This document shows positions 10,978 through 63,220 of a stretch of 64,000 bases of DNA, in pieces (within the stretch, counting starts at the first letter, position 1; each line of letters begins with the position of its first letter). Origin of the DNA: Takakia lepidozioides (Eukaryota > Plantae > Bryophyta); assembly GCA_030704615.1 (NCBI GenBank), contig CM060732.1, forward strand, positions 60,140,001 to 60,204,000. Reading direction: 5' to 3'. Under the pieces are notes generated by a model, which worked only from the letters and a program-made list of their open reading frames with translations, was not told where the DNA came from and ran no database searches. The translations under genes were made by a program, and so were the position numbers.

Positions 10978-11470
10978 CTAGTAGTCCCCGTCACAGCCGA
11001 AGTCTGCTGCCAGGTCACTGTGCTGGTCACCTATGATCTCATATGTAAAACCAAACCTTCTTCTTTGAAGAAACTTTGTGAGTAAAGTGGCAGATTGAAA
11101 CATGTGAGTGTATTTCTTTTTGGTGGAGTCGATGCGCTTCATCAAGCGCCTCCATTTTTTTTTCATGCCCCCTATCCCCCATTCAACTCGCACGCAATAG
11201 TCGGCATGCATCTTGTTGTAGGCCCTCACTGTTCCAAGTTCATCAACTTCTATAGGTACTTCGCGCCTGCCCGAATGTCAGAATGTCGCAAGATGGTAAC
11301 GTCATGAAAGGACCCCGGTATCCTGAATCTATGTAAATAAACAGTCCATGATGGTCGAACACGACTGTGCTGTTCATAGAGTAGATCTTCATACGGCCGG
11401 TAAACCATGTTTTGTGCTCTTGATTCTTCTAGGGACGACGAATTTTTGACTAGGGTAACGTCAATCAGGC
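10978..11470 (-). pseudogene. Harbinger transposase, 3' half
   Basis: YNKMHA..VRVEWGIGGMKKKWRRL (third catalytic residue region); the frame upstream reads LIDVTLVK up to the retroelement junction; contains frameshifts. Confidence 0.85.
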
Positions 11471-11797
11471 TGTCAAGTTATTTTACCACTAGTGTGAAAC
11501 TAGCTAGGAAATAGCTAGCTTTTACATATTGACATTTGGGATTGGCCCAAGTGTCAATCCAGGGGTCAAAGCAGATTTAGGCCCTGGAGTGGTTATCTTC
11601 ACAGCAAGCGCGGGAGGCTCATCTTTCTCGAGTTGAGCCTCACCGCGCCTAGCTATGGCGCCGTAGTGTGGATTCCCCATGGCGTGGGGTGCACTTGGCT
11701 TGACTTGTATTTGAGTGATGAGGTTATATATGCATGAGTTTATGCTTCAGCTTTGTGCGCTCGCATGAGCTTGTGCTTGTATTCTTCCTCTTTATCA
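11471..11797 (+). repeat. Terminal repeat A1 (327 bp, TG...CA)
   Basis: Identical to 23177-23503 apart from one substitution seen (CACAGC vs CACGGC). Confidence 0.95.
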
Positions 11798-11813
11798 CTC
11801 GAGAAAGATGAGC
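11797..11813 (+). promoter_or_regulatory. Putative self-priming primer-binding site
   Basis: ACTCGAGAAAGATGAGC is the exact reverse complement of 11617-11633 inside repeat A. No TGG-starting tRNA PBS is present here. It is followed by a 10-bp hairpin (11813-11839). Confidence 0.7.
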
Positions 11814-12479: not shown

Positions 12480-12900
12480 ATAGGGGGCTGATATCTCTTG
12501 TGTGAAGAGGTTGCATGTGTGGAGCATGTATTCAGCTCATTGAAGCTTCCATCTTCAAGCTTGGAGGGCAAGCAAGGAAGAGGGAAGGGCTGACTTCCCT
12601 TATGTGAGGGCAATGTATGTGTGGAGCATGCTATCAGCCTGGTGAAGGCTTGCACTTTTAGGTGTGGGAGTGCAAGAAAGGAAGGAAGGGGCTGGTTTCC
12701 CTGTAGGGCATGTAGAGCATGCTTTCAGCCTGCTGAAGCTTGTATTATCAGGTTTGTGGGTGCAAGAAATGAAGCAAAGGAGCTGATTCTCTTATGGTGA
12801 GAGTGGGGCATGTGTGGAGCATGCCTTCAGCCCATTGAGGCTCTTGTTTTCAAGCCTTAGAGAGCTAGAACGGAAGGTCTAGGGCTGGTTTCCACTTGGA
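12480..12900 (+). repeat. About four degenerate ~100-bp repeats in the retroelement leader
   Basis: Recurring GCATGTGTGGAGCATG..TCAGC..TGAAGCTT..CAAG..GAAGGGCTG near 12513, 12615, 12708 and 12808. Confidence 0.6.
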
Positions 12901-13335
12901 GTGAAAGAACAGCACTTGTAGGGCCTATGTGAGTTGGGGTTTCAACTTCAAGCTTGAAGGGAGCACAACTCTTGAAGCAACAGGTGTAGAGGGCTGGAAT
13001 AGGCTCTAAGACAGATGCTATGGCCAATGAGGGGAGTGCTTGAATGAGTGCTCACAAGGGCTGGGAACCAGCATGGCTTGGTTGTTTGCCATTGAGTTTA
13101 GTGGCGTGTTTGGGGAGGCTAAGTGAGAAAGAAGGCTTGGTTTGTGGCAACCACCTCATGGCTTAGGGCTACTATTGTGGTGTGTGGGAGCCGAAAGAGC
13201 AAGGATACCTTGCTGATTTCCTCACAGCCACCATAGCTCGGTGGAAAGAAGCCTAGAGTCCAAGAGACACAAACCCTAGCTTGGCGTGGCTAAACCCCTT
13301 GGAGAAATGGCTAAACTGCCAGAGCGGCCATGTGT

Positions 13336-14683
13336 GGGGCTGTGACAGGCTGTGGCAAGCTGTGACGGGCTGTGGCAGCTGTGACAGGCTGTGATGGGCT
13401 GTGTCAGGCTGTGACAGGCTGTGCCCAGTGGCCTTTGGGGCTGTGACGGGCTGTGCGGGGCTGTGACAGGCTGTGCCCTGAGGCCTGTGGGGCTGTGACG
13501 GGCTGTGACAGGCTGTGCCCAGTGGCCTGTGGGGCTGTGACGGGCTGTGATGGGCTGTGATGGGCTGTGCCCTGTGCCCTGTGGGGCTGTGACGGGCTGT
13601 GTCAGGCTGTGACAGGCTGTGCCCAGTGGCCTTTGGGGCTGTGAGGGGCTGTGACAGGCTGTGCCTGAGGCCTTTGGGGCTGTGACGGGCTGTGAGGGGC
13701 TGTGACAGGCTGTGCCCTGTGCCCTGTGGGGCTGTGACGGGCTGTGTCAGGCTGTGGCGAGCTGTGACGGGCTGTGCGGGGCTGTGACAGGCTGTGCCCT
13801 GAGGCCTGTGGGGCTGTGACGGGCTGTGACAGGCTATGCCCAGTGGCCTGTGGGGCTGTGACGGGCTGTAACAGGCTGTGGCAAGCTGTGACAGGCTGTG
13901 ATGGGCTGTGATGGGCTGTGACAGGCTGTGCCCTGTGCCCTGTGGGGCTGTGACGGGCTGTGTCAGGCTGTGACAGGCTGTGCCCAGTGGCCTTTGGGGC
14001 TGTGACGGGCTGTGACAGGCCGTGCCTGAGGCCTTTGGGGCTGTGACGGGCTGTGAGGGGCTGTGACAGGCTGTGCCTGTGCCCTGTGGGGCTGTGACGG
14101 GCTGTGTCAGGCTGTGGCGAGCTGTGACGGGCTATGATGGGCTGTGACAGGCTGTGCCCTGTGCCCTGTGGGGCTGTGGCAAGCTGTGACCGGCTGTGAT
14201 GGGCTGTGATGGGCTGTGACAGGCTGTGCCCTGTGCCCTGTGGTGCTGTGACGGGCTGTGTCAGGCTGTGACAGGCTGTGCCCAGTGGCCTTTGGGGCTG
14301 TGACGGGCTGTGGGGGCTGTGACAGGCTGTGCCCTGAGGCCTATGGGGCTGTGACGGGCTGTGACAGGCTGTGGCGAGCTGTGACAGGCTATGCCCATGG
14401 CCTTTGGGGCTGTGAGGGGCTGTGAGGGGCTGTGACAGGCCGTGCCTGAGGCCTTTGAGGCTGTGACGGGCTGTGAGGGGCTGTGACAGGCCGTGCCCAT
14501 GGCCTTTGGGGCTGTGACGGGCTGTGAGGGGCTGTGACAGGCCGTGCCTCGGGCCTTTGGGGCTGTGACGGGCTGTGAGGGGCTGTGACAGGCCGTGCCC
14601 ATGGCCTTTGGGGCTGTGACGGGCTGTGACGGGCCGTGCCTGAGGCCTTTGAGGCTGTGAGGGGCTGTGAGGGACTGTGACGG
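13336..14683 (+). repeat. Minisatellite array, ~10-bp unit GGCTGTGAC(A/G) with higher-order variants, in the retroelement leader
   Basis: About 1.35 kb of GGGCTGTGAC/AGGCTGTGCC units interspersed with GGCCTTTGGG and GCCCTGTGGG spacers. Confidence 0.95.
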
Positions 14684-15426
14684 CCTGACCAGTGAGCTGT
14701 GTGGGCCTGTGCTGGTCTGTGGTGGCCCGTGTTGACCTGTGGACGGCCTGTGCTGACTCGTGGAGGCACTGGTGGACTGCCTAAGGACTGGCATGTGGTC
14801 TGGAAGGCCGAATTTTGAAGCTCGTGGAGGGCGGTTTGAGGAGTATCTTCATGATATTCCCATGGTCATGCAAGTGAGGATAGAGAGGAGAGGCAGAGTG
14901 TTGGGATGAGAGCATGCTGGGGTTAGGCATTGCTTTAGCTTCTCTTCCTCGTAGTTTCCACCCTCTCATTAGGCCAAGACCTTTCCGTAGGTGGAGGCAA
15001 GAGTCAGTCCGGGTTTGGGCTGGGGTGTCCTTGCAGGAGCAACACCGTGGAGTTGTTTTTGGTGTGGGGGAGTTGTCGATCTGATTTCTTGTGTTTGGAT
15101 CCCCTCCATACCTGCATGCTTGACTGTGCGCCATGCTAGTTTTGTGTGGGCGCTTGTTTTTATAGGTGATTGGTCCGGATTTGATCACCGGCCAGTCCTA
15201 GAGCATGCTGTCGATGGTGAGGCTGGGGTGATGACCAGCCAGACCATCATTGTTTCTCCTGTGGTGAGGTTGGAGGTGATGACCAGCCAACCATAGGAGT
15301 GCTTGCGGTGGATGCAGGTACAGGTGTAGGCTATGTTAGGAACTTAGTATTCCAAACCATAAGCCGCAACAGGTTCTCTACCCGGTTACCTTGTGAAGAG
15401 GGGGTTAGGGACATGTTCATGACCGG

Positions 15427-18400
15427 TTGAGTGTCAACACGGAGGTGCCACTAGTTGCTGGGGACAGTGCCGGTTCGAGCACTAGCGATACTAGTGGGTA
15501 CACGAGACGAGGTGTGCGGTTTAGGCCACCTTCACCTCCTGTGTCTTCTACGGAAGGTTCTGATTCGGATTGTGAATCGGGAGGACTCATACCGGCGGTG
15601 CAAGTTGTTTCTTTGCCATTGTTGTGGGACACAATGGAGGAGATGTATGGAGCTACCAAGGGGCCACGAAGGTACTCTGGGGCGGTGGGCACCATTGAGT
15701 TGGATGATTTTATCCAAGAGTTTGATAGTTGGTGTGATTTGCAGCAAATGCGCAATCCACAACTATTTACGCCGTTCATGGCATGGAAAGGGCTGTTTCA
15801 GCACCTTGAGGGGCCGCCTATGGATGATTACCATGAGTTCAGGCGGGGGCATGAGGTTGAGATCGAGGAGTGGAGGATGTACTGGTCACCCGACTATGTC
15901 TCCATCACTAGGGGCACTAGAGCCACGAGGGCAGTGGCTACACCTGCCGCTGCACCGGCAGCTTCAGCAAGCAGCAGTGGGACTGGTGGTACAGTAGCTA
16001 CGACGTCCACCCAAGCCACTACCGCACCAGCACTAGCACCCGTGCCTGCCTTCAACCCTGTTGTGGAGTTCTTCGAAGAGTTGAGAGGGAACTACCAAGG
16101 GGTGAGGACAGAGAAGTTGCGGAGCTTGCAAGAGTTCCAACGGAAGCCGACCGAGAGCTTGAGGGAGGCTTTCACTCGCATGAGGCGCTTGATAAATGTA
16201 ACCCAAGGGGTTACGGAAGCTCAGGCAGTCCAATTCTGGTATGGGATATTGGACAAGGAGCTGAGGAGAAGGGTGCGGGATGCAACTCTCCTACAAGCGG
16301 CCCAACCCACCTTAGCAAATGTGTTTTTGCTGGCAGAGCGGATAGAGCTCAACATGGTGGAGGAACGAGTGGTCATGGTGGGATTTGCTAAGGAGACACC
16401 ACGGGGTAGTGGTGCTCCTAGCCAACCACTACCTCAACGTGCTCAAGGCAACAAGGGGGCTCAGGTGAAGCTCAGGGAAGGGCAGAGAGGACCTCAGATG
16501 CAGGGGTCTCTCCCTTCATTTGCTGGCCAACAACGGGCGGATGTGGTGTGCTGGACATGTGGAGGACCCCATGTCAAGAAGGATTGTCCAGAGGGAGGCA
16601 AAGGGCCGGCACATGCACAGCCTGCACAGTTACAGTGTGGGCATTGTGGCAAACACGGGCATGGAGAGGCTCAGTGTTATGGTTTGCATCCTGAGTTGCG
16701 CCCAGGCCAGTTCCAAGGGAACAATGGTGGCCGGGGGCGAGGTGGAGCAGCCCAGAGGGGACGAGGTGGCCAGCCACGAGGCCAAGGGCAAGCTCAACGT
16801 GGCCAAGGACGCGGAGGTCAGGGTGTTGACCAAGGCATGGCCAACCGGCTTCAGCAGCTAGAGCAGAGGCTCGCTGCCATGGCTACAGCTCAGGTGGTAC
16901 CGGCTCTAAGGCCGGATGGTCCACCTCCTGCTCCTGAGGGAGGAGATATGGGAGGCATGGGATTCATGTGTGGAGCAGCACTACCACTAGTGCAGGTGGA
17001 GTCTGCTGCAGCCGTGACTCGAGGAGCAGCACGAGTTCCTGAGCCACGAGGTGCAGAGGTGGAGTTGGATCCACAGCGTGGGGAGGCAAGCCGTCAGGCT
17101 AGGCTTCCTCAGTCATTCACATTGGCGGAGACAGTGTCGACGCCATCCATGGCACCTAGTTCTCGCCCGACTGTTACCGAGGCGGAGGTTACTATGCCAT
17201 TGGGGAGAGCTACACGGGTAGCACCACTACCTAGTGTTGCCAAGGCTACGGCAGCTAGTGTGCTGCTAGGAGCGGCCACATCTGTGTGCCAGGCTCCATT
17301 GTTCTCGGCTACCATGATTGCGACGCCGGGGGTAAGACCAGCTGAGGTGTTCAGGCTGGCAGCTACACTCTGTGAGAGTGGGGAGGTTACTTCATCTTCT
17401 GCGGAGATAGTGGGAGGTGTAGTGCCGGAGGGATCCTCGGATTTGAGGGTCAAGACTGCCACGGCGGCGCCATGGCAAGCTGCAGCTGCCAGGTTGATGG
17501 AGCTGCCAGCTAGGCCAGCCATTGAGCGCGCCATGGTGACACCTGGAGTTGTCATGTTAGACAACCAGGATGGCATTTTCTGTTTGAGTGGACCGGCAGG
17601 CAAGAGGTACCGGCCACTGCGAGTCTTGTTGGACTCGGGAGCTCAGCCACTGATGCTGGGCAGAGCTGCTATTGCAGGCTTGGGCCTCACGGAGGCGGAT
17701 ATGGAGCCTTGTCCTTTCCAGATACAGACGTCTCTGGGAGGATCGGAGCAGGCTCGGGGCATGACACGGCATGAGTTGGCTATCAGACTACGGCCGGATC
17801 ACCCTACAGATGGCTCAGTGATGCGAGCCAAGGCCATTGTGACAGACGCAGTCTCATACGATGTCCTGGTTGGTGGGGCAGTGTTGTACCCCATGGGCTT
17901 CACCCTGGATTTTTGGGAGGAGTCAGCTTCCTATAGGCCTGCATGGCAGTCAGGGGAGGGCCGGCGTGTGCAGCTCCCTGTGACGTTCATAGGAGGAGTT
18001 GCGGTTGCCCAGCGAGGCAAGATGCCGACACTAGCAGCATTCACAGCGGCAGTGAGTTGGCCTAGAGAGTTGCTTGAGGGCAATGCTCATTCAGAGGATG
18101 TACCACCTCCGGGAGAGCAGGATGACATGTATGGTATGGCGGAGTTGCCTACCATGGTTGCTCAGACTCCATTGTGGGGCACGAGCAAGGATTTGCAGCG
18201 GGATGCTGATCGACGGGTGCAACAAGCCTGGGTGGAGGCTTTTGTACCGTCAGGAGAGGAGGAGAGTGTGGGGATTGCACCAGGACCACCTCAATTGTCT
18301 CCATTGGACACCACACCTATTGTGTGGCAGTCTCCGGATGAAGGCATTTGTCTTCTGGACTTGTTTGGCGGGATCAGCACCGGATTGGCTGCTGTGTTAC

Positions 18401-19594
18401 AGGCAGGTGTACGAGTTCGGCGTTACCTGTATGTGGAGAGGGATGAGACTGCACGACGCGTTTCACTTCGCCATGTTGCTCAGTTGGTGCAGCGGTACCC
18501 TGAGTTGTTGTCGGTGTCTGCAATTCGTGGATATCAGCAGGCCTTGCCAGCAGACATTTCGTTGCTGGGGGCGCAGGATTTGGAGCGGGTTGGCTCCATT
18601 GATCTGGTAGTGGCAGGTTGGCCCTGCCAAGGGCATTCATCAGCCGGGCATGGCAATGGATTGCGAGACTCGAGGTCGGGTCTGTTTTGGGAGATGGTGC
18701 GGGTTTTGCGCCACTTGCAGCTTCATCAAGCTGTATCTCCAGCATACATCTTGGAGAATGTGCCACTGATGGGCGATTCTCGGGCCAGGGTGATGGCCAG
18801 TGTGCATCAAGTCCGGTCGTGGCTTGGGTCAGCAGTGTTGCTAGGATGCAGCTACAGTGGGGTCACGGGCTCATCGTCCACGGCTATGGTGGACTAACAT
18901 GATGCCACCCGCACTGCTCAAGCGTGCATTTGATGGGGTGCAGCGGCCAGCACATCTCACAGTGGATAACATTCTGGACACAGGGAGGCAGTCTCAACGT
19001 GTGAGACACGATGACCGTTCGCCTTTGGCAGTGGTCAACAAGGTGGGTCAACCACGAGCAGCATTACCTACACTGCTCAGCTTCCCAGGATCGCATGCTT
19101 TCCGGGATAGTGGACCTGGCCTCCTGTGGGATGCTCAGTTGCAGCAGTTAGTGGAGCCTAATGCTGACGAGCGTGAGCGGGCAATGGGTTTTACCACTGG
19201 TACCACGGCGGTGTCGTCTCTTTCTGAGGCATCACGTCGTCAAGTGTTGGGGCAAGCAATGGATCTCAATTGCTTGACCTGGATTATCAGCTTGGCTCTA
19301 GCTGAGCAACGCAGAGTGCGGAATACACTTCCCTCAATGGTCTCTCTGCCTACCGAGACGGTACAGGCAGTGAGTGGGGGCGAGCATATGAGGACCACGG
19401 GGTGCATGCATCCATGGCACACGTGGGAGGTGCTCGAGGTTCAGAGGGAGTTGGCAGCCAAGGCGGCTGTGATGGATGAGGTTGGGGATTCTTCTCGAGT
19501 TGAGGAGGTCCTCAAGGATGAGATGATGGGGCAGGATGATGCCTTGTCATTGACTGAGCAGGTAGGGAGTACTGCTCAAGAGGTTGCAGCATAG
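15427..19594 (+). CDS. Gag - aspartic protease - DNMT3-like C5 cytosine methyltransferase polyprotein (first ATG 15634; +1 frameshift at ~18844 in this copy)
   Basis: Gag MHR-like FQRKPTESLREAFTRM; Zn knuckles CWTCGGPHVKKDC and CGHCGKHGHGEAQC; protease LLDSGA; MTase motifs LDLFGGI, GWPCQ, LENV, AHRPRLWWTN, ERAMGF, RQVLGQAM. Copy 2 reads through the frameshift position in a single frame (LLDAAIVGS). Confidence 0.9.
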
Positions 19595-22500
19595 CAACCA
19601 CGGGACGCGTCCTCTACCTCTAAGCCCACTGGACTTAAGGTTGTAGTTACGGAGGACAATTGGGAGCCTGACATTGGACCCATTGTCACCGGAGGAGAGA
19701 GACGACGTATACGGCGGTTCCTGAGGGCTTACAGGAATTGCTTTGCCTTCAGTTTGAAGGACTTGGGAGCACTGAAGGGTCAAGAGATCCGTATTGAGTT
19801 GGCCACTGACACGCCAATCTTTCGGAGACCCTATAGATACAGTGACATGGAGAGGTCTTTGATTCAGATGAGGACTCAAGATCTCTGGGAGGCAGGTTTG
19901 GTGGAGCTCTCTGGTGGAGAGTATGCTTCAGCCACAGTGATGCCAGCCAAGAAGGATGTCTATGGCAATTGGACGGAGAGACGTATGTGCGGTGATTACC
20001 GGCCTGTAAATCGTCAGACCAAGTCCGATAAGTATGCCATGCCAACACCAGAGGAGATCTTTGATGCCATCGGGCATGCTAAGGCCTTTAGCACTTTGGA
20101 TTTACGATCCGGATATCACCAGTTGCCAATCAAGGAGGCGGACAAGCAGAAGACGGCATTCTGGGGGATCAATGAGCACGGCAAGGATTGCCTATATCAG
20201 TGGCGGTTCTTACCATTTGGGCTTAAGAATGCTCCTGCAGAGTTTCAGAGAGTCATGGATAGGATTCTAGCAGGGGTGGACTTTGCTCGGTGCTACATAG
20301 ATGACATCATCATCTTTAGTGTTACGATGGAGGAGCATGAGAGACACCTTCAGGTGGTATTGGAGCGCTTGAGAGCGCACGGATTGAAGTTGCATCCGGG
20401 GAAGTGCAAGTTTTTCCACAACCAGATTGAGTATCTGGGTCACATGATATATCCTGGAGGATTGGGGGTACAGCAGACTAAGGTAGAGGCCATTGCACAA
20501 ATTCCACGCCCCACGGATGTGAGCCGAGTTCGAGCTTTCATGGGGTTGGCAAACTATTATAGACGGTTTGTCAAGGGATTTAGTACCATTGCAAAGGCTC
20601 TAACCAAGCTGACCAAGGTGGACCAGGAGTGGCAGTGGGAAGATGAGCAGGAACGAGCTTTTCAAGAGCTCAAGGCGAGGTTGACCTCGGCGCCTATCTT
20701 GAGACGACCTATCAGGGGGCGTCCCTTTCAGCTGCATACGGATTGGAGCATGCTGGGGCTTGGAGCGGTGCTCACACAGGTGGATGATGAGGGAAGAGAG
20801 TTCGTAGTGGCTTACGCTAGCCGCTCGAACAACGCTGCAGAGGCTAAGTACAGCTCATATGAGGGAGAGTGCTTAGCTGCAGTGTGGGCCGTGGCACACT
20901 TCAGGTGCTATCTATACGGCAATCTTTTCACCCTTGTCACGGATCACCAGCCACTCAAGTGGTTGATGGAGTCAGACAAGCTTACAGGGAAGCTTGCACG
21001 GTGGGCACTTATACTCCAGGAGTATGACTTTCAGGTTGTGCATCGACCGGGTTTGGTCAATCGGGATGCGGATGGATTGAGTCGCAATCCATGCATGAGC
21101 CAGCAGGATGACACTGGAGCTCGGTGGCATGGTGAGACGGACGAGGAGATGGTGCCGGGATGGCACGCATCTGCATTTTTGTGTATCTTGGCATCGGGAG
21201 GTCAGATTGGACCTACAACAGGGATGACTGTAGACGGAGTGTCTGAGGACCCTGAGGCTAGTGATGAGCTAGGTGGTGCCAGAGATATACATGAGGATTC
21301 GGCTGTGTTGGACTACCTCCGCACGGGAGACACGGCAGCCATTGTGACTGCCAGGGAGAGGGATCGGATCCTGCAACGAGCCAAGAGGTTCAAGTGGGAG
21401 GGGATACACCTACTTCGAGTGTGGGAGGGTGGTCGGGTGAGGATTGTGCCTCACCCCACACAGCGTGCACGGTTAGTGCGGCATGCCCATGAGGAGTTGG
21501 GGCATTTTGGAGTGCGACGCACTCACAGTTTACTGCAGGGGCAGTATTGGTGGCGTGGTATGCATACAGAGGTGCAACAGTTTGTGGCTAGGTGCATGGT
21601 GTGTGACAGGGTGCGTGCTTCATTCAACGCCCCTACACCACAGTTGCATCCTTTACCTATCATGGGATTGGGCTACAGGTGGAGTCTTGACTTCGCAGGA
21701 CCGTTGCCACTGACTATGCGCCACCACAGATATGTGTTGGTGATGGTGGAGCACTTCTCCAAGTGGATTGAGTTGGTTCCATTGCCTGACAAGGCTAGTG
21801 AGGGGGCTGCGTATGCATTCTTGGATCGTGTGCTTAGCCGATTTGGTGCTCCAGCTGAGGTACTCACGGACCAAGGGAGAGAGTTCTTGGGGGAGTTTCA
21901 GGCTTTGTGTGATAAAGCCTTGATAGACCACCGCACCACTTCTCGGGATCATCCTGAGGCCGATGGCTTAGCAGAGAGAGTTGTTCAGACGGTGAAGAGG
22001 GGTTTGCGCAAGTATGGCTTGCAGAAGGGACACCTAGGAGATTGGGATCTTCAGGTTCCTTGGTTAGCCATGGGCTACAGGTTCAGCAAACAAGCATCAC
22101 TTGCCTCCTTCTCACCATATTTCCTTCTCTTTGGCCGAGAGCCGGATTTGCCTGCAGCCATTCGTAGGGACACTGCTCAAGTCCTTAACCTTGACGATCC
22201 GGACGTGTGGGTACGTGCATGTGATCAGCGTGCAGAGTTGTTCAAGAAAGTCATGCCCATGGCTTTTGAGAACCTTGCCATTGCACAGCACCGTGATACG
22301 TTGAGGTATGCCACTATACGTGGTGGAGGATATCGTCCTGGGGTTCGGAGGTTTAGCCCTGGTGACTATGTTTATTTGCAGCAGACTGCTCCTACGACTC
22401 TGGATGTTACTGCAGGGCGTGTTATTCTGAGGGTTCGAGAGGTGTTGCCCTCAGGGGTCCTGATCTTGGAGGGTCGGGATGGCATGACTTGGAAGGACCA

Positions 22501-22729
22501 TGTGCGTAATTGTGCGCCATGTCACCTTCCCAATGTCGATGGCAGAGTTGACCCAAACTTGGCAGTGGTACCTGCAGGTTTGAGGTGCATGCTCTGTGGG
22601 TCTGCCAAAGGGGCAGCCACCATGCTGGTGTGTGATCGATGCTCAAGGGGTTGGCATATGGGATGCTTGACACCACCTCTTGAGAAGGTTCCTGACGGAG
22701 ATTGGTTGTGTCCACACTGCTTGGGATAG
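19595..22729 (+). CDS. Pol: reverse transcriptase - RNase H - DDE integrase - PHD finger; in frame with the upstream ORF across a single UAG
   Basis: RT motifs RMCGDYR, LDLRSGYHQ, PFGLKNAP, YIDD; RNase H TDWS...E...TDH; integrase HHCC plus D(SLDF), D(TDQG), E(LAER); C-terminal C4HC3 PHD. The frame is open from 19595, upstream of the TTG called by the ORF track. Confidence 0.95.
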   Translation, partial: QPRDASSTSKPTGLKVVVTEDNWEPDIGPIVTGGERRRIRRFLRAYRNCFAFSLKDLGALKGQEIRIELATDTPIFRRPYRYSDMERSLIQMRTQDLWEAGLVELSGGEYASATVMPAKKDVYGNWTERRMCGDYRPVNRQTKSDKYAMPTPEEIFDAIGHAKAFSTLDLRSGYHQLPIKEADKQKTAFWGINEHGKDCLYQWRFLPFGLKNAPAEFQRVMDRILAGVDFARCYIDDIIIFSVTMEEHERHLQVVLERLRAHGLKLHPGKCKFFHNQIEYLGHMIYPGGLGVQQTKVEAIAQIPRPTDVSRVRAFMGLANYYRRFVKGFSTIAKALTKLTKVDQEWQWEDEQERAFQELKARLTSAPILRRPIRGRPFQLHTDWSMLGLGAVLTQVDDEGREFVVAYASRSNNAAEAKYSSYEGECLAAVWAVAHFRCYLYGNLFTLVTDHQPLKWLMESDKLTGKLARWALILQEYDFQVVHRPGLVNRDADGLSRNPCMSQQDDTGARWHGETDEEMVPGWHASAFLCILASGGQIGPTTGMTVDGVSEDPEASDELGGARDIHEDSAVLDYLRTGDTAAIVTARERDRILQRAKRFKWEGIHLLRVWEGGRVRIVPHPTQRARLVRHAHEELGHFGVRRTHSLLQGQYWWRGMHTEVQQFVARCMVCDRVRASFNAPTPQLHPLPIMGLGYRWSLDFAGPLPLTMRHHRYVLVMVEHFSKWIELVPLPDKASEGAAYAFLDRVLSRFGAPAEVLTDQGREFLGEFQALCDKALIDHRTTSRDHPEADGLAERVVQTVKRGLRKYGLQKGHLGDWDLQVPWLAMGYRFSKQASLASFSPYFLLFGREPDLPAAIRRDTAQVLNLDDPDVWVRACDQRAELFKKVMPMAFENLAIAQHRDTLRYATIRGGGYRPGVRRFSPGDYVYLQQTAPTTLDVTAGRVILRVREVLPSGVLILEGRDGMTWKDHVRNCAPCHLPNVDGRVDPNLAVVPAGLRCMLCGSAKGAATMLVCDRCSRGWHMGCLTPPLEKVPDGDWLCPHCLG

Positions 22730-22975
22730 TGGCAGTGGACATGACTGGAGGCAGCTAACAAGACATGGGAGGCCAAGCTCATAGGAGTCAATACATGAGA
22801 TCCCAAGCTCAAGTTCACAGGTTGCAAGACGGCGACTAACGATGGGGCTCTTGCACCCGGCCTCTTGATCTATCGAGTTTGAGTGTAGTAGGGATAGTGG
22901 TGGAGGACTTAGTGAGGCTATGGTCACTATCACATCTTGTGGCTACCTGGACTTAGAGGGACCTAAGCACCAGCT

Positions 22976-22985
22976 AGGGGGGCGA
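22976..22985 (+). promoter_or_regulatory. Polypurine tract
   Basis: AGGGGGGCGA immediately before T-TGTGTGG (start of repeat B1); copy 2 has AGGGGGACGA at the same place. Confidence 0.75.
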
Positions 22986-22986
22986 T

Positions 22987-23174
22987 TGTGTGGACTAGTG
23001 ACTGCCATAGTGGGCAGCGTAGTGGCAGCCTAGTGACTGACTAGTTGTAGCCTAGTGGTTGGACTAGTGGCTGGACTAGTGGTAGACTAGTGGTATACTA
23101 GTGTGTGGTGTGCACATGTGTTGTGTGGTTTTGGACAGCGATGTAGTTGTGTAGCGATATGTATGCGCACGACA
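22987..23174 (+). repeat. Terminal repeat B1 (188 bp, TG...CA)
   Basis: Matches 23505-23692 with one substitution seen; rich in ACTAGTGG units. Confidence 0.95.
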
Positions 23175-23176
23175 GC

Positions 23177-23503
23177 TGTCAAGTTATTTTACCACTAGTG
23201 TGAAACTAGCTAGGAAATAGCTAGCTTTTACATATTGACATTTGGGATTGGCCCAAGTGTCAATCCAGGGGTCAAAGCAGATTTAGGCCCTGGAGTGGTT
23301 ATCTTCACGGCAAGCGCGGGAGGCTCATCTTTCTCGAGTTGAGCCTCACCGCGCCTAGCTATGGCGCCGTAGTGTGGATTCCCCATGGCGTGGGGTGCAC
23401 TTGGCTTGACTTGTATTTGAGTGATGAGGTTATATATGCATGAGTTTATGCTTCAGCTTTGTGCGCTCGCATGAGCTTGTGCTTGTATTCTTCCTCTTTA
23501 TCA
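23177..23503 (+). repeat. Terminal repeat A2 (327 bp)
   Basis: Copy of 11471-11797; joined to B1 by GC and to B2 by T. Confidence 0.95.
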
Positions 23504-23504
23504 T

Positions 23505-23692
23505 TGTGTGGACTAGTGACTGCCATAGTGGGCAGCGTAGTGGCAGCCTAGTGACTGACTAGTTGTAGCCTAGTGGTTGGACTAGTGGTTGGACTAGTGG
23601 TAGACTAGTGGTATACTAGTGTGTGGTGTGCACATGTGTTGTGTGGTTTTGGACAGCGATGTAGTTGTGTAGCGATATGTATGCGCACGACA
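23505..23692 (+). repeat. Terminal repeat B2 (188 bp), right end of the element
   Basis: Copy of B1; directly followed by the TSD AGGC and resumed Harbinger transposase sequence. Confidence 0.95.
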
Positions 23693-24283
23693 AGGCCGAC
23701 ATATCATAGAAAGTCAGGTATATGAGTGGCCAGCCTAGCTCGCTCTTCTGGGATTGGCTAGCGGATTTCGTTTCCAATTGCGTGGTTTATGCAGGAAGAG
23801 ATGAACAGGGCATCAATATCCCACAACGAACTTCTCGACCAATTCCACATAAATGAATCGTAAAGAGTCACGTTGTCATGCTTGAGGTTTAAAATGAAAT
23901 TGAGTAATCGTTGGTGAGAGGTGAGCTTAGATGGCCTGCCAGTGCAAAGTTTTTCTTCGCCCGTCAATCGAGCATTTGAGATGATAGTCGGCACTACCAA
24001 TGCAGCTAGCTCCTCAAACTCTTCTACACTAAAATTAGTGAGCTGCTTGAAAAGTGTAGGTATGGCTCGCATTGTGGCAAGCACATCCCCGACTCCAACC
24101 TCTCGGTCCATAGACTGCCCATAGCCCTCCTCCATTTCGTTAAAATTGAACAAATCTATCGAACTAGAAACAACTAGCGCAGCTTAAAGAAACACGGAAG
24201 CTCTCCATGTCGTCGAACAGATCATTATCACTTGAAGAAGATGAGCTATCATCGCTTGAGGGAGATGATGAGGAGCCTGCCAT
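23693..24283 (-). pseudogene. Harbinger transposase, 5' half
   Basis: ATG at 24283 (MAGSSSS...); FKQLTNFSVEEFEEL and GRPSKLTSHQRLLNFI (HTH_Tnp_4-like); in-frame stops; joins the 3' half as YVG|LIDVT once the retroelement and one TSD are removed. Confidence 0.85.
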
Positions 24284-55163: not shown

Positions 55164-55841
55164 TGTCGTGCGCATACATATCGCTACACTACTACATCGC
55201 TGTCCAAAACCACACAACACATGTGCACACCACACACTAGTATACCACTAGTCCACCTCTAGTCCAACCACTAGTCCAATCACTAGGCTACAACTAGTCA
55301 GTCACTAGGCTGCCACTATGTTGCCCACTATGGCAATCACTAGTCCACACAATGATAAAGAAGAATAATACAAGCACAAGCTCATGCGAGCTCACAAAGC
55401 TGAAGCATAAACTCATGCATATATAACCTCATCACTCAAATACAAGTCAAGCCAAATGTACTCCACGCCATGGGAAATCCACACTACGGCGCCATAGCTA
55501 GGCGCGGTGAGGCTCAACTTGAGAAGGATGAGCCTCCCGCGCTTGCCGTGAAAATAACCACTCCAGGGCCTAAATCTGCCTTGACCTGTGGATTGACACT
55601 TGGGCCAATCCCAAATGTCAATATGTAAAATCTAGCTATTTTCTAGCTCACACTAGTGGTAAAATAACTTGACAGCTGTCGTGCGCATACATATCGCTAC
55701 ACAACTACATCGCTGTCCAAAACCACACAACACATGTGCACACCACACACTAGTATACCACTAGTCCTACTACTAGGCTACAACTAGTCAGTCACTAGGC
55801 TGCCATTATGCTGCCCACTATGGCAGTCACTAGTCTACACA
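55164..55841 (-). repeat. B-GC-A-T-B terminal block of copy 2 (B2 55164-55351, A2 55353-55674, B1 55677-55841)
   Basis: Same order and the same junctions (GACAGCTGTC and TTTATCATTGTGTG) as copy 1. Confidence 0.95.
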
Positions 55842-56101
55842 ATCGTCCCCCTAGCTGGTGCTTAGGTCCCTCTAAGTTCAGGTAGCCACAAGATGTGATA
55901 GTTACCATAGCCTCACTAAGTCCTCCACCGCTGTCTCTACTACACTCAAACTCGATAGATCAAGAGGCCGGGTGCAAGAGTTGCCCCATCGTTAGTCGCC
56001 GTCTTGCAACCTGTGAACTTGAGTTTGGGATCTCGTGTATTGACTCCTATGAGTTTGGCCTCCCATGTCTTATTAACTGCCTCCAGTCATGTCCACTGCC
56101 A

Positions 56102-59100
56102 CTATCCCAAGCAGTGTGGACACAACCAATCTCCGTCAGGAACCTTCTCAAGAGGTGGTGTCAAGCATCCCATATGTCAACCCCTTGAGCATCGATCACA
56201 CACCAGCATGGTGGCTGCCCCTTTGGCAGACCCACAGAGCATGCACCTCAAACCTGCAGGTACCACTGCCAAGTTTGGGTCAACTCTGCCATCGACATTG
56301 GGAAGGTGACATGATGCACAATTACGCACATGGTGCTTTCAAGTCATGTCATCCCGACCCTCCAAGATCAGGACTCCTGAGGGCAACACCTCTCGAACCC
56401 TCAGAATAACACGCCCTGCAATGACATCCAGGGTCGTAGGAGTAGTCTGCTGCAAATAAACATGGTCACCAGGGCTAAACCTCCAAACCCCAGGACGATA
56501 TCCTCCACCACGTATAGTGGCATACCTCAACGTATCACGGTGTTGTGCAATGGCAAGGTTCTCAAAAGCCATGGGCATGACTTTCTTGAACAACTCTGCA
56601 CGCTGATCACATGCACATACCCACACGTCCGGATCATCAAGGTTAAGGACTTGAGCAGTGTCCCTACGAATGGCTGTAGGCAAATCCGGCTCTCGGCCAA
56701 AGAGAAGGAAATATGGTGAGAAAGATGCAAGTGATGGTTGTTTGCTGAACCTGCAGCCCATGGCTAACCAAGGCACCTGAAGATCCCAATCTCCTAGGTG
56801 TCCTTTCTGCAAGCCATACTTGCGCAAACCCCTCTTCACCGTCTGAACAACTTTCTCTGCCAAGCCATCGGCCTCAGGATGATCCCGAGAAGTGGTGCGG
56901 TGGTCTATCAAGGCTTCATCACACAAAGCCTAAAACTCCCCCAAGAACTCTCTCCCTTGGTCCGTGAGTACCTCAGCTGGAGCACCGAATCGGCTAAACA
57001 CACGATCCAAGAATGCATACGCAGCCCCCTCACTAGCCTTGTCAGGCAATACAACCAATTCAATCCACTTGGAGAAGTGCTCCACCATCACCAACACATA
57101 TCTGTGGTGGCGCATAGTCAGTGGCAACGGTCCTGCGAAGTCAAGACTCCACCTGTAGCCCAATCCCATGATTGGTAAATGATGCAACTGTGGTGTAGGG
57201 GCGTTGAATGAAGTACGCACCCTGTCACACACCATGCACCTAGCCACGAACTGTTTGCACCTCTGTATGCATACCACGCCACCAATACTGCCCCTGCAGT
57301 AAACTGTGAGTGCGTCACAGTCCAAAATGCCCCAACTCCTCATGGGCATGCCGTACTAACCGTGCACGCTGTGTGGGGTGAGGCACAATCCTCACCCGAC
57401 CATCCTCCCATACTCGGAGCAGGTGTATCCCCTCCACTTGAACCTCTTGGCTCGTTGTAGGATCCGATCCCTCTCATTGGCAGTCACAGTGGCTGCCATG
57501 TCTCCAGTACGGAGGTAGTCCAACACAGCCGAATCCTCATATATATCTCTGGTACCACCTGGCTCATCACTAGCCTCAGGGTCCTTAGACACTCCGTCTA
57601 CAGTCATCCCTATTGTAGGTCCAACTTGACCTCCCAGAGATTTTGAGTCCTCATCTGAATCAAAGACCTCTCCATGTCACTGTATCTATAGGGTCTCCGA
57701 AAGATTGGCGTGTCAGTGGCCAACTCAATACGGATCTCTTGACCCTTTAGTGCTCCTAAGTCCTTCAAACTGAAGGCAAAACAATTCATGTAAGCCCTCA
57801 GGAACCGCCGTATATGTCGTCTCTCTCCTCCGGAGACAATGGGTCCAATGTCAGGCTCCCAATTGTCATCCGTAACTACAACCTTAAGTCTAGTGGGCTT
57901 AGAGGTAGAGGACGCATCCAGTGGTTGCTATGTTGCAACCTCTTGAGCAGTACTCCCTACCTGCTCAGTCAATGACAAGGCCTCATCTTGCCCCATCATC
58001 TCATCCTCGAGGACTTCCTCAACCTTAGAAAAATCCCCAGCCTCATCCATCACCGCCACATTGGCTGCCAACTCCCTCTGAACCTCGAGCACCTCCCACG
58101 TGTGCCATGGATGCCTGCACCCCGTGGTCCTCACATGCTCGCCCCCACTCACTGCCTGTACCGTCTCGGTAGGCAGAGAGACCAACGAGGGAAGTGCACT
58201 CCGCACTCTGCGTTGCTCAGCCATAGCCAAGCTGATAATGCAGGTCAAGCAATTGAGATCCATTCCTTGCCCCAACACCTGACGACGTGCTGCCTCAGAA
58301 AGAGACGGCACCGCCGTGGTACCAGTGGTAAAACCCATTGCCCGCTCACGCTCGTCAGCATTAGGCTCCACTAACTGCTGCAACTGAGCATCCCACATGA
58401 AGCCAGGTCCACAATCCCAGAAAGCATGCGATCCTGGGAAGCTGAGCAGTGTAGGTAATGTTGCTCGTGGTTGACCCACCTTGTTGACCACTGCCAAAGG
58501 CGAACGGTCATCATGTCTCACACGCTGAGACTGCCTCCCTGTGTCCAGAATGCTATCCACTGTGAGATGTGTTGGCCGCTGCACCCCATCAAATGCACGC
58601 TTGAGCAGTGCGGGTGAGATCAAGTTAGTCCACCATAGCCGTGGACAATGAGCCTGTGACCCCACTATAGCTGCATCTAACAACACTGCTGACCCAAGCC
58701 ACGACCGGACTTGATGCACACTGGCCATCATCTTGGCCCGAGAATCGCCCATCAGTGGCATATTCTCCAAGATGTATGCTGGAGATACAGCTTGATGAAG
58801 CTGCAAGTGGCGCAAAACCTGCACCATCTTCCAAAACAGACCCGACCTCGAGTCTCGCAATCCATTGCCATGCCCGGCTGATGAATGCCCTTGGCAGGGC
58901 CAACTTGCCACTACCAGATCAATGGAGGCAACCCGCTCCAAATCCTGCGCCCCCAGCAACGAAATGTCTGCTGGCAAGACCTGTTGATATCCATGAACTG
59001 CAGCCACCGGCAACAACTCAGGGTACCACTGCACCAACTGAGCAACATGGCGAAGTGAAACGCGTCATGCAATCTCATCCCTCTCTACATACATGTAACG

Positions 59101-62100
59101 CCGAACTCGTATACCTGCCTGTAACACAGCAGCCAATCTGATGCTGATCCCGCCAAACAAGTCCAGAAGACAAATGTCTTCATCCGGATACTGCCACACA
59201 ACAGGTGTGGTGTCCAATGGAGACAACTGAGGTGGTCCTGGTGCAATCCCCGCACTCTCCTAGTCTCCTGATGGTACAAAAGCCTCCACCCAGGCTTATT
59301 GCACCCATCGATCAGCAACCCGTTGCAAATCCTTGCTCGTGCCCCACAATGGAGTCTGAGCAACCATGGCAGGCAACTCCACCATATCATACATGTCATC
59401 ATGTTCTTCTGGAGGTATGTCATCCTCTGAGTGAGCGTTTCCCTCAAGCAACTCTTCAGGCCAAGTCACTGCAGCTGTGAATGCTGCTAGTGTCGGCATC
59501 TTGCCCCGCTGGGCAACCGCAACTCCTCCTATAAATGTCACAAGGAGCTGCACACGCCGGCCCTCCCCTGACTACCATCCAGGCCTATAGGAAGCTAACT
59601 CCTCCCAAAAATCCAGGGTGAAGCCCATGGGGTACAACATTGCCCCACCAACCAGGACATCGTACGAGACCGCATCTGTCACAATGGCCTTGGCTCGCAT
59701 CACTGAGCCATCTGTAGGGTGATCCGTCCGTAGTCTGATAGCCAACTCATGCCGTGTCATGCCCGAGCCTGCTCCGATCCTCCCAGAGACGTCTGTATCT
59801 GGAAAGGACAAGACTCCATATCCGCCTCCATGAGGCCCAAGCCTGCAATAGCAGCTCTGCCCAACATCAATGGCTGAGCTCTTGAATCCAACAAGACCCG
59901 CAGTGGCCGGTATCTCTTGCCTGCCGGTCCACTCAAACAGAAAATGTCATCCTGGTTGTCTAACATGACAACTCCAGGTGTCACCATGGCGCGCTCAATG
60001 GCTGGCCTAGCTGGCAGCTCCATCAACCTGGCAGCTGCAGCTTGCCATGGCGCCGCCGTGGCACTCTTGACCCTCAAATCCGAGGATCCCTCCGGCACTA
60101 CACCTCCCACTATCTCCGCAGAAGATGAAGTAACATCCCCACCCTCACAGAGTGTAGCTGCCAGCCTGAACACCTCAGCTGGTCTTACCCCCGACGTCGC
60201 AATCATGGTAGCCGAGAACAATGGAGCCTGACACACAGATGTGGCCGCTCCCAGCAGCACACTAGCTGCCGTAGCCTTGGCAACACTAGGTAGTGGTGCT
60301 ACCCGTGTAGCTCTCCCCAATGGCGTAATAACCTCCGCCTCGATAACAGTCGGGCGAGAACTAGGTGCCATGGATGACGTCGACATTGTCTCCGCAAATG
60401 TGAATGACTGAGGGAGCCTAGCCTGACGGCTTGCCTCCCCACGCTGTGGATCCATCTCCACCTCTGCACCTCGTGGCTCAGGAACTCGTGCTGCTCCTCG
60501 AGTCACGGCTGCAGCAGACTTCACCTGCACTAGTGGTAGTGCTGCTCCGCATATGAATCCTATGCCTCCTATATCTCCTCCCTCAGGAACAGGAGGTGGA
60601 CCATCCGGCCTTGGAGCCGGTACCACCTGAGCTGTAGCCATGGCAGCGAGCCTCTGCTCTAGCTGCTGAAGCCGGTTGGCCATGCCTTGGTCAACACCCT
60701 AACCTCCGCGTCTTTGGCCCTGTTGAGCTTGCCCTTGGCCTACACCCCGTGCCTGGCCACCTCGTCCTCTTTGGGCTGCTCCCCCTCGCCCCCGGCCACC
60801 ATTGTTCCCTTGGAACTGGCCTGGGCACAACTCGGGATGCAAACCATAACATTGGGCCTTTCCATGCCCGTGCTTGCCACAATGCCTACACTGCAACTGT
60901 GCAGGCTGTGTATGTGCCGGCCCTTTGCCTCCCTCTGGACAATCCTTCTTGACGTGGGGTCCTCCACATGTCCAACACACCACATCCACCCGTTGTTGGC
61001 TTGCAAATGAAGGGAGAGACCCCTACATCTGAGGTCCTCTCTGCCCTTCCCTGAGCTTCACCTGAGCCCCCTTGTTGCCTTGAGCACGTTGAGGTAGTGG
61101 TTGGCTAGGAGCACCACTACCCCGTGGTGTCTCCTTAGCAAATCCCACCATGACCACTCGTTCCTCCGCCATGTTGAGCTCTATCCGCTCTGCCAGCAAA
61201 ACCATATTTGCTAAGGTGGGTTGGGCCGCTTATAGGAGAGTTGCATCCCGCACCCTTCTCCTCAGCTCATTGTCCAATATCCCATACCAGAATTGGACTC
61301 CTTGAGCTTCCGTAACCCCTTGGGTTACATTTATCAAGCGCCTCATGCGAGTGAAAGCCTCCCTCAAGCTCTCAGTAGGCTTCCGTTGGAACTCTTGCAA
61401 GCTCCGCAACTTCTCTGTCCTCACCCCTTGGTAGTTCCCTCTCAACTCTTCGAAGAACTCCACAACAGGGTTGAAGGCAGGCACGGGTACTGGTGCTGGT
61501 GCGGTAGTGGCTTGGGTGGACGTCGTAGCTACGGTACCACCAGTCCTACTAGTCCCACTGCTGCTTGCTGAAGCTGACGGTGCAGCGGCAAGTGTAGCCA
61601 CTGCCCTCGTGACTCTAGTGCCCCTAGTGATGGAGACATAGTCGGGTGACCAGTACATCCTCCACTCCTCGATCTCAACCTCATGCCCCCGCCTGAATTC
61701 ATGGTAATTATCCATAGGCGGCCCCTCAAGGTGCTGAAACAGCCCCTTCCATGCCATGAAAGGCGTAAATAGTTGTGGATTGCGCATTTGTTGCAAATCA
61801 CACCAATTATCAAACTCTTGGATAAAATCATCCAATTCGATGGTGCCCACCGCCCCAGAGTACCTTCGTGGCCCCTTGGTAGCTCCATACATCTCCTCCA
61901 TTGTGTCCCACAACAATGGCAAAAAAACAATTTGCACCACCGGTATAAGTCATCCTGATTCACAATCCGAATCAGAACCTTCCGTAGAAGACACAGGAGG
62001 TGAAGGTGGCCTAAACCGCACACCTCGTCTCGTGTACCCATTAGTAGCGCTAGTGCTCGAACTGGCACTGTCCCCAGCAACTAGTGGCACCTCCGTGTTG

Positions 62101-62108
62101 ACACTCAA
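56102..62108 (-). pseudogene. Disrupted gag-PR-MTase / pol of copy 2
   Basis: Fragment ORFs match copy 1. The MTase segment 57928-59037 is uninterrupted. About 1309 bp of RT/RNase H is deleted at a GGGAGG microhomology (57630-57635). Confidence 0.92.
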
Positions 62109-62834
62109 CCGGTCATGAACATGTCCCTAACCCCCTCTCCACAAGATAACCGGGTAGAGAACCTGTTGCGGCTTATGGTTTGGAATACTAAGTTCCTAAC
62201 ATAGCCTACACTTGTACCTGCATCCACCGCAAGCACTCCTATGGTTGGCTGGTCATCACCTCCAGCCTCACCACAAGAGAAACAATGATGGTCTGGCTGG
62301 TCATCACCCCAGCCTCACCATCGACAACATGCTCTAGGACTGGCTGGTGATCAAATCCGGAACAAGCGCCCACACAAAACTAGCATGGCGCACAGTCAAG
62401 CATGCAGGTATGGAGGGGATCCAAACACAAGAAATCAAAACGACAACTCCCCCACACCAAAAACAATTCTACGGTGTTGCTCCTACAAGGACACCCCAGC
62501 CAAACCCGGACTGACTCTTGCCTCCACCTAAGGAAAGGTCTTGGCCTAATGAGAGGGTGGAAACTACGAGGAAGAGAAGCTAAAGCAATGCCTAACCCCA
62601 GCATGCCCTCATCCCAACACTCTTCCTCTCCTCTATTCCCTCACTTGCATGACCATGGGAATATCATGAAGATACTCCTCAAACCGCCCTCCACGAGCTT
62701 CAAAATTCGGCCTTCAAGACCACATGCCAGTCCTTAGGCAGTCCACCAGTGTCTCCACGAGTCAGCACAGGCCGTCCACAGGTCAACACGGGCCACCACA
62801 GACCAGCATAGGCCCACACAGCTCACTGGTCACA

Positions 62835-63220
62835 CCCGTCACAGCCCCACACAGGCCACAGCCTATCACAGCCCATCACAACCCCAAAGGCCACAGGCAC
62901 AGCCTGTCACAACCCTACAAAGGTCACAGGGGTCACAGCCTGTCACAACCCCTCAAGCCCGTCACAGCCTATCACAGCCCTACACAGGTCACAAGGGTCA
63001 CAGCCCCTCACAGCCCCTCACAGCCCCACAGGCCACATGACACAGCCTGTCACAGCCCTACAAAGGTCACAGGGGTCACAGCCCCAAAGGCCACAGCCTG
63101 TCACAACCCCTCACAGCCCGTCACAGCCTGTCACAGCCCCAAAGGCCACAACCTGTCACAGCCCTTCACAGCCCCATAGGCCACTGGGCACAGCCTGTCA
63201 CAGCCCTACACAGGTCACAG
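62835..63220 (-). repeat. Leader minisatellite of copy 2 (GTCACAGCCC units on +)
   Basis: Same core unit as 13336-14683 but with different higher-order spacers (e.g. AAAGGTCACAGGG); the element is truncated here. Confidence 0.9.

Follow-up and report, generated by a model that had tools for sequence, protein, structure and literature searches.

A DNMT3-type cytosine methyltransferase between protease and reverse transcriptase of a gypsy-type retrotransposon, broken in both copies at hand and possibly used by intact relatives to methylate their own new DNA

Cytosine methylation is the main means by which plants silence transposons, and because of this it is counter-intuitive that a transposon should carry a de novo methyltransferase of its own. 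What would such an element do with an enzyme of this kind? This question is raised by a retrotransposon that is present twice (copy 1 and copy 2) in a 64,000-nucleotide stretch of the moss Takakia lepidozioides (contig CM060732.1, positions 60,140,001 to 60,204,000; hereafter, "the window"), where a sequence-only reading had pointed to a DNMT3-like C5 cytosine methyltransferase domain between protease (PR) and reverse transcriptase (RT). The role of such enzymes has been open since 2018, partly since the sole streptophyte host was Klebsormidium and the enzyme was silent in yeast. Our preferred reading, which we hold with measured rather than firm confidence, is that the window contains a DNMT3-type C5 methyltransferase between PR and RT of a 12.2-kb gypsy-type element of the Klebsormidium "Gypsy-DNMT3" kind, that this enzyme is broken in both copies, and that intact relatives probably use theirs to methylate their own new DNA.

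The C5-methyltransferase motifs I, IV, VI, VIII, IX, and X were found on translation in the canonical, unrearranged order at 18343–19381 of copy 1, each at the position that had been given for it earlier, and Pfam PF00145 matched residues 1043–1120 of open reading frame 1 (ORF1) (E = 4.3e-12, 46.5 bits, for a cut-off of 22), so that this check also came out in favor of the domain. All matches in a protein atlas were DNA_methylase clusters. A family profile built from 33 sequences and searched against all PDB sequences matched DNMT3A best (E = 6.4e-25), followed by DNMT3C (4.6e-23), DNMT3B (3.4e-22), DRM (7e-12), DNMT2 (4e-9), and M.HhaI (1e-7), with no match to DNMT1 or CMT at E of 0.01 or better; a single copy-2 protein, used as the query, matched DNMT3A weakly (E = 0.012). 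Because neither window copy is intact, we modeled the intact domain of a Marchantia relative (P0112, residues 905–1236) with AlphaFold (predicted local distance difference test, pLDDT, 92.1; predicted template-modeling score, pTM, 0.92). All Foldseek matches listed for this model (to rank 50) were DNMT3A, DNMT3B, or DNMT3C, at E of ~1e-19, and VIA-align gave a Z of 28.4 for DNMT3 (root-mean-square deviation of 2.7 Å, 274 aligned residues), versus 24.8 for M.MpeI, 24.1 for M.HhaI, and 22.5 for DNMT1. By sequence profile and by fold, the domain is thus DNMT3-type, well ahead of DRM, DNMT2, M.HhaI, and DNMT1, and the label that it had received from its motifs was apt.

The domain shares with animal DNMT3A, 3B, and 3C, its best profile and fold matches, the motif order I-IV-VI-VIII-IX-X, and the motifs of the DNMT3A alignment (LFDGI, AHRARYFW, ERVFGF, and RQRLLGRSW) resemble those of the element. 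Unlike the animal enzymes, it lacks PWWP and ADD reader domains and forms part of a fusion with Gag-protease; its target-recognition region is also longer (a domain of 332 residues versus ~285 in DNMT3), and identity is 19–25%. Plant DRM, likewise a DNMT3-derived de novo methyltransferase of plants, formed the second-best group of profile matches, but its motifs are circularly permuted whereas those of the element are not. Host DNMT3 genes exist in non-seed plants as well, for example, moss PpDNMT3b (PMC6453930).

The element that carries the domain in copy 1 spans 12,222 bp (11471–23692), with AGGC on either side. It consists, in order, of a terminal repeat (X1), a 3.8-kb leader, a Gag-PR-DNMT frame opening with an ATG at 15634, an in-frame TAG at 19592, and an RT-RNase H-integrase-PHD frame open to 22729 (Pfam E-values: RVT_1, 4e-33; RT_RNaseH, 1e-35; Integrase_H2C2, 2e-16; rve, 1.5e-13; PHD, 1.7e-10). 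The order PR-RT-RNase H-integrase, the DDE integrase, and the short target duplication are those of Ty3/gypsy elements, and the DNMT3-type domain lies, intron-free, within the gypsy-type polyprotein. It was right to place the domain downstream of gag-protease in both copies, as Gag with its CCHC knuckles and an aspartic protease (LLDSGA in copy 1) precede DNMT in each.

The sequence-only reading had presented the DNMT domain as one stretch; its motifs and their order stood, but it was silent on a split of the reading frame in copy 1, where motifs I to VI and motifs VIII to X lie in different frames. Position 18844 is one base extra relative to copy 2, and all of the ~30 aligned relatives read openly across this point without a break. 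Because of the extra base, the Gag-PR-DNMT frame of copy 1 ends at a stop at 18895–18897, with all later sequence in a shifted frame. We considered whether 18844 marks a programmed frameshift and rejected this, as copy 2 and all aligned relatives are without the extra base and the break falls in the middle of a folded domain. Along the 7.1 kb of coding sequence, 18844 is the sole break: Copy 1 is a very young insertion, and the frame break is its only coding lesion. The earlier description of the element as recently mobile holds for copy 1 alone, whose repeats differ at 2 of 519 positions and whose 4-bp target duplication is intact; as read, copy 1 cannot make its own Pol and relies on proteins supplied by other copies.

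Copy 2, by comparison, is an old, RT-deleted relic with 93.6 to 94.9% identity to copy 1 in two BLASTN blocks. Its DNMT domain is unbroken from motif IV to motif X, with SWPCQ replacing GWPCQ and ENM replacing ENV, while the stretch matching 19898–21196 (1.3 kb, RT) is missing and its first Y repeat (described below) carries a 23-nt deletion. The matches that flank the RT gap (57623–57635) overlap by ~12 bases, suggestive of a deletion at a short repeat, and one further locus (L005) has a DNMT-to-integrase junction similar to that of copy 2.

How might an intact relative bring the enzyme to its own DNA? The stop between DNMT and RT offers a candidate route. At the same place, a TAG (23 cases) or TAA (5) precedes CAA or CAG and two pyrimidines in 28 of the 30 family sequences whose downstream peptide can be recognized. 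Because the TAG at 19592 is conserved in both window copies and in these 28 sequences, with the same following codons, we rejected the notion that it is a defect. The window's UAG-CAA-CCA at the Gag-PR-DNMT/Pol boundary, known here as a sequence motif, matches exactly the tobamovirus readthrough consensus UAG-CAR-YYA (PMC3159437), and the UAG is probably leaky. In one clade further removed, DNMT runs on into RT with no stop at all.

With a leaky UAG, most ribosomes would yield Gag-PR-DNMT and a minority Gag-PR-DNMT-RT-RNase H-integrase, and the methyltransferase would thereby enter the particle at Gag-like amounts, well placed for the cDNA. Once released by the protease, it could mark the cDNA inside the particle or on leaving it, such that the new copy would arrive already methylated. 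Such methylation could mimic host DNA, damp the element's own expression, or, with the PHD finger of the integrase, steer the chromatin of insertion. Self-methylation was put forward for DIRS elements by de Mendoza et al. in 2018 (PMC5890265), and the particle-dosage idea is an extension of theirs. The sequence-only reading had also named a change of host methylation, which would be a further possible effect.

The same arrangement was found well beyond the window. A word-indexed protein search returned 107 relatives of similar length and 33 longer ones, the closest at 85% identity (a search of this type with the DNMT region of P0157 gave three matches). In Marchantia polymorpha, at least 17 models belong here, among them Mp_4g09160 (1278 amino acids, 64% identity) with a complete Gag-PR-DNMT, and further named hosts are Calypogeia fissa, Riccia sorocarpa, Sphagnum troendelagicum, S. 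jensenii, and S. fallax. From a scan of metagenome contigs with 339 confirmed matches we kept 80 loci: 47 with the order PR/linker-DNMT-RT, 6 with DNMT between RNase H and integrase, and 27 that were cut or partial. An exhaustive profile search of 1.84 billion representatives (50% clusters) gave 553 at E of 1e-30 or better, the fifth best of which was the Klebsormidium nitens protein GAQ93235.1 (E = 5e-115), with the order zinc knuckle (CCHC)-aspartic protease-DNA methylase. From protease to the end of DNMT, this protein is collinear with the Marchantia protein (BLASTP, 569 amino acids, 29%, E = 1e-54), and it aligned with ORF1 of the window over 400 amino acids (26%, E = 9e-27).

A quick tree of 38 rows put the K. 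nitens protein on the PR-DNMT-RT side and the chlorophyte sequences on the other. A careful tree, limited in size, was built from 63 of 109 domain rows, the 46 dropped being mainly near-duplicates and short rows, plus three surplus Marchantia and three surplus Hariotina copies. Here, the window copies formed a clade (100/99) that was sister (100/99) to a clade of Marchantia, Calypogeia, and Sphagnum, with branch lengths of 0.005 for copy 1 versus 0.14 for copy 2; copy 1 has diverged very little from the ancestor that it shares with copy 2. Because the same order occurs in the bryophyte relatives and in the K. nitens protein, the window element, as judged from its sequence, belongs in a land plant to the Gypsy-DNMT3 kind that was published for charophytes. 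The suspected kinship to Klebsormidium elements was borne out by GAQ93235.1, a Gag-PR-DNMT protein of the same family, and the proposal of a land-plant element is likely correct if short of proven, with bryophytes as the named relatives and exons for a peroxidase, a GDSL lipase, and an amino acid transporter in the window.

The alternative order RNase H-DNMT-integrase was seen in PHD-bearing gypsy elements (L038, L044, L049, L061, L063, and L067) and also in chlorophyte proteins (P0137, P0144 (Hariotina reticulata), and P0217 (Scenedesmus sp. PABB004)). As DNMT is homologous in both orders, one domain occupies two positions in related elements across green plants.

Among described systems, KnitGypsy-Dnmt3 of K. 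nitens (PMC5890265) is closest in having an unrearranged DNMT3-type domain inside a gypsy-type polyprotein with no introns. DIRS-like split repeats are common to both; the legend to Fig. 4c of that paper calls the KnitGypsy-Dnmt3 repeats "the same as that of a DIRS retrotransposon." The window element differs in that its host is a land plant and in its ~26 to 29% identity to the K. nitens protein over PR-DNMT, where GAQ93235.1 may or may not be one of the copies of the paper. In that study, the copies from K. nitens fell within a divergent clade of Dnmt3, and their capture was taken to be peculiar to the K. nitens lineage, with a species table that has Physcomitrella and Klebsormidium but not Marchantia, whereas the family as found here also spans bryophytes and, with the other domain order, chlorophytes. 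SymbioDIRS-Dnmt3, SymbioLINE-DNMT, and the EpiLTRs (PMC5890265; bioRxiv 10.64898/2026.05.21.726589) are retrotransposons with a cytosine methyltransferase too, but they differ in hosts and in class (tyrosine-recombinase DIRS, long interspersed nuclear element (LINE), and chromoviruses with DNMT4-like and Dam enzymes, respectively). The 2026 preprint cites "streptophytes (Gypsy-DNMT3)." Our literature searches turned up no account of the family from land plants, although the supplements of a 2025 survey and of the 2026 preprint could list copies.

Has the methyltransferase been kept by selection? We evaluated this within the window's clade, made up of the two window copies and 34 loci, with dN/dS, the ratio of replacement to silent substitution rates, given as the median of pairwise Nei-Gojobori estimates. 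The catalytic PC is kept in 33 of 35 readable copies and ENV in 29 of 36. Median dN/dS, in copies that are mostly decayed, was 0.55 for DNMT, 0.55 for integrase, 0.44 for Gag, 0.40 for RT plus RNase H, and 0.76 for protease. Because its median matches that of integrase, DNMT appears as constrained as the core enzymes in this clade, on copies that also bear neutral decay.

Several observations weigh against the view that intact relatives methylate their own new DNA. Just 10 of the 80 loci have an uninterrupted DNMT frame (3 more have partial coverage), and with the frame break at 18844 in copy 1 and the internal TGA in copy 2, neither window copy can make the enzyme. Between copy 1 and copy 2, dN/dS of DNMT is 2.0 in the N half and 1.6 in the C half (39.5 replacement versus 7.5 silent differences; neutrality not rejected, p = 0.24), compared with 0.35 to 0.47 for Gag, PR, and integrase-PHD (Fisher test of DNMT versus the rest, p = 0.001). 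The K. nitens domain produced no methylation in yeast, a result that its authors considered inconclusive because human DNMT3B was likewise inactive (PMC5890265). Finally, most relatives end the stop context in CCC or CCT, off the tobamovirus YYA at the last base, and the case for readthrough is the motif itself.

The damage in the window would also suit a methyltransferase that was functional in ancestors and is now a dispensable, decaying passenger, in copies spread by the proteins of other elements, an explanation that we judge unlikely though deserving of weight. The two copies were disabled by different lesions, with copy 2 having lost RT as well, and the raised dN/dS of DNMT in the copy pair fits such decay. 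Likewise, when replacements were polarized on the sister clade, 6 derived ones were counted in DNMT of copy 1 versus 25 in copy 2, and in both lineages these were relatively commoner in DNMT than elsewhere (copy 1, 6 in 342 DNMT codons versus 4 in 790 elsewhere; copy 2, 25 in DNMT versus 30 elsewhere). The copy-pair contrast may be the best evidence for dispensability of DNMT in this lineage, but the estimate is noisy because it comes from two copies and 7.5 silent differences. Moreover, no catalytic motif is missing from copy 1, whose N half shares 75% and C half 73% identity with the Marchantia domain, and the single break of this copy could date from the insertion or later, or be a read error. 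CpG decay was considered as the main source of the differences between the copies and is unsupported, with 54 of 317 substitutions being CpG transitions. The sequence-only reading had named neutral evolution, or loss of PC and ENV from most copies, as outcomes that would speak against it: The window pair goes halfway there, with no detectable constraint, and the family does not, as PC and ENV are mostly kept.

A different possibility is that the domain is kept, but for RNA methylation or as a noncatalytic DNA- or chromatin-binding module of the Gag-PR product, which we regard as improbable. The inactivity of the K. nitens domain on DNA in yeast is in line with such a role, and RNA methylation has been raised for the LINE-borne DNMT (PMC5890265). 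The sister clade (L039–L080, 33 readable loci; proteins P0090 and P0139), mostly without a stop before RT, replaces PC by EC and ENV by ENT or ENI in all copies that could be read, and yet its DNMT dN/dS is 0.36, which suggests selection beyond canonical catalysis there. The window's clade, however, keeps the catalytic Cys, ENV, the arginines of motif VIII, and the S-adenosylmethionine-binding motif I; the nearest structures by fold are those of DNA-bound DNMT3 rather than of DNMT2; and a related retrotransposon enzyme, SymbioDIRS-Dnmt3, methylates CG de novo in yeast (PMC5890265). An accidental juxtaposition, with a host DNMT3 fragment beside or interrupted by a retrotransposon or a chimera of the assembly, was considered because of the host DNMT3 genes of non-seed plants. 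It found nothing in its favor and can be dismissed: The same order occurs in a single frame in both window copies, recurs at 47 of the 80 independent loci, and is shared by annotated proteins from at least five named species, and the domain lies within an element bounded by target duplications.

If methylation of the element's own cDNA by intact relatives is accepted as the preferred reading, the manner in which that cDNA is made and inserted comes into focus, and here the ends of the element are unusual. Plain long terminal repeats (LTRs) were rejected: On the left there is X alone (327 nt) and on the right Y-X-Y (Y, 190 nt), where X1 and X2 differ at 1 of 329 positions and Y1 and Y2 at 1 of 190. 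The termini in this family read TGTC...GACA. The full X-internal-Y-X-Y pattern recurs in six loci from two clades (L035, L034, L025, L048, L055, and L043; L034 and L035 are apparently one insertion), and 4-bp target duplications are present at five of six distinct complete insertions (window, AGGC; L035/L034, CATA; L025, AAGG; L048, GGTC; L055, CCAA), while none was found at L043. The layout is that of the split direct repeats of DIRS, Ngaro, and PAT elements, A1-internal-B1-A2-B2 (PMC8969392). Those elements, however, rely on a tyrosine recombinase and insert without target duplication, whereas this family has a DDE integrase (rve and H2C2), TG...CA ends, and 4-bp duplications, and no Pfam match to a tyrosine recombinase was found in the element.

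No TGG-type tRNA primer-binding site follows X1; instead, the 14 to 16 nt after X1 are complementary to X positions ~147 to 162 (about 11617–11632). This self-complementarity is present with different letters in relatives (14/14 in L025, L048, and L043; 11/12 in L055; 9/10 in L035), and a centroid RNA fold pairs the stretch after X1 with mid-X (z of −5.6). The covarying site looks like a Tf1-type self-priming site, and it would set the transcript start in mid-X. The internal Y|X junction, GACA-NN-TGTC, is what joining the two integrated ends would give, and X2|Y2 resembles the junction of a circle. No standard replication scheme yields X-internal-Y-X-Y: With the polypurine-like tract and the priming site, the standard scheme predicts Y-X-internal-Y-X, which was seen in none of the eight loci with readable repeats (the two window copies and the six loci above). 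A 2-LTR circle opened at the Y|X palindrome was not favored, as it predicts X-Y-X-internal-Y as often as X-internal-Y-X-Y, and the former was again seen in none of these eight.

A broader account would join these features in one old green-plant Gypsy-DNMT3 lineage, spanning chlorophytes, Klebsormidium, and land plants, in which DNMT of the streptophyte branch, dosed ahead of a leaky UAG at many copies per particle, marks the cDNA, priming is Tf1-like, and a split-repeat form with a DDE integrase arises by a scheme undescribed for gypsy elements. We put this forward tentatively; as a whole, it is possible but doubtful. Dosing, delivery, and replication could be approached through the position of DNMT ahead of a probably leaky stop, through the split repeats and their target duplications, and through the self-priming site with its covariation. 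Because intact Gag-PR-DNMT frames occur in M. polymorpha and in peat mosses, the question can be put to the test in a plant that can be transformed and has good tools for methylome work, and "DNA methylase" gene counts in bryophytes are inflated by transposon copies.

Table 1. Positions of element features within the window, with strand and basis of assignment.
Feature	Position	Strand	Basis
Left target-site duplication AGGC, copy 1	11467..11470	+	Same 4 bases at 23693–23696
Repeat X1 (TGTC...ATCA), left end	11471..11797	+	99.7% identical to X2 over 329 nt (BLASTN)
Primer-binding-like site CTCGAGAAAGATGAGC, complementary to mid-X	11798..11813	+	14/14 complementarity
Tandem array, ~131 copies of 10-nt unit GGGCTGTGAC, 5′ leader	13337..14687	+	Tandem Repeats Finder; direct-repeat family D1
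Gag, aspartic protease, and linker, same frame as DNMT N half	15634..18343	+	Translation, weak Retrotrans_gag match, collinear alignment to Marchantia/K. nitens
Two CCHC knuckles (Gag)	16549–16677	+	Motif coordinates
Protease LLDSGA	17626–17643	+	Motif coordinates
DNMT domain N half: motifs I, IV (catalytic PC), VI (ENV)	18343..18843	+	Translation, Pfam, alignment
Motif I LDLFGGI	18355–18375	+	Translation
Motif IV GWPCQ	18616–18630 (catalytic PC 18622–18627)	+	Translation
Motif VI ENV	18754–18762	+	Translation
Single-base length difference breaking DNMT frame, copy 1	18844..18844	+	Comparison with copy 2 and relatives
DNMT C half (VIII, IX, X to ~19381) and acidic tail, next frame	18845..19591	+	Translation, alignment
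Motif VIII AHRPRLWWTN	18869–18898	+	Translation
Motif IX ERAMGF	19175–19192	+	Translation
Motif X RQVLGQAM	19238–19261	+	Translation
In-frame stop TAG then CAA CCA, between DNMT and RT	19592..19600	+	Sole stop between frames; common to both copies
RT, RNase H, integrase (H2C2, rve), C-terminal PHD finger, without internal stop	19595..22729	+	Pfam, translation
G run, polypurine-tract-like, just 5′ of Y1	22977..22982	+	Same place in L035, L034, L025, L048, L055, L043
Repeat Y1 (ATTGTG...GACA)	22985..23174	+	99.5% identical to Y2
Repeat X2, joined to Y1 via 10-nt palindrome GACA-GC-TGTC	23177..23503	+	BLASTN
Repeat Y2, right end of copy 1, one base common with X2	23503..23692	+	BLASTN
Right target-site duplication AGGC	23693..23696	+	Matches left AGGC
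Copy 2, decayed, RT-deleted, ends Y-X-Y at 55164–55843; 5′ part not resolved within window	55164..63213	−	BLASTN, ORFs
Copy 2 DNMT domain (TGA between motifs I and IV; SWPCQ; ENM)	58141..59182	−	ORFs, alignment

Some further features of the element and its surroundings are worth recording. An Rfam search of 11000–24000 gave no match. The GGGCTGTGAC array of the leader is also present at 62829–63213 in copy 2, and the coding strand of the whole element is G-rich (GC skew of 0.16 to 0.32), with a G+C content 10 points above the surroundings. The first ~90 residues of Gag (15634–15900) are, by eye, near-identical in the window, Marchantia (P0112), and Sphagnum (P0133) elements; this unusual conservation across distant hosts makes horizontal spread worth testing.

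Outside the element, host-gene exons for a peroxidase, a GDSL lipase, an amino acid transporter, and ribosomal protein S10/S20e fit a plant, the stretches of host exons and transposase being 952–3313 (+), 29702–30396 (−), 36155–38636 (−), 48364–48687 (−), and 10981–11277 (−). A DDE_Tnp_4 transposase fragment adjoins the insertion site of copy 1, and the elements lie in gene-bearing DNA. Two direct-repeat blocks (41962–44352 and 50574–53062), 92 to 97% identical and ~8.6 to 8.8 kb apart, could belong to a further repeat element or stem from a segmental duplication that flanks the ribosomal protein exon.

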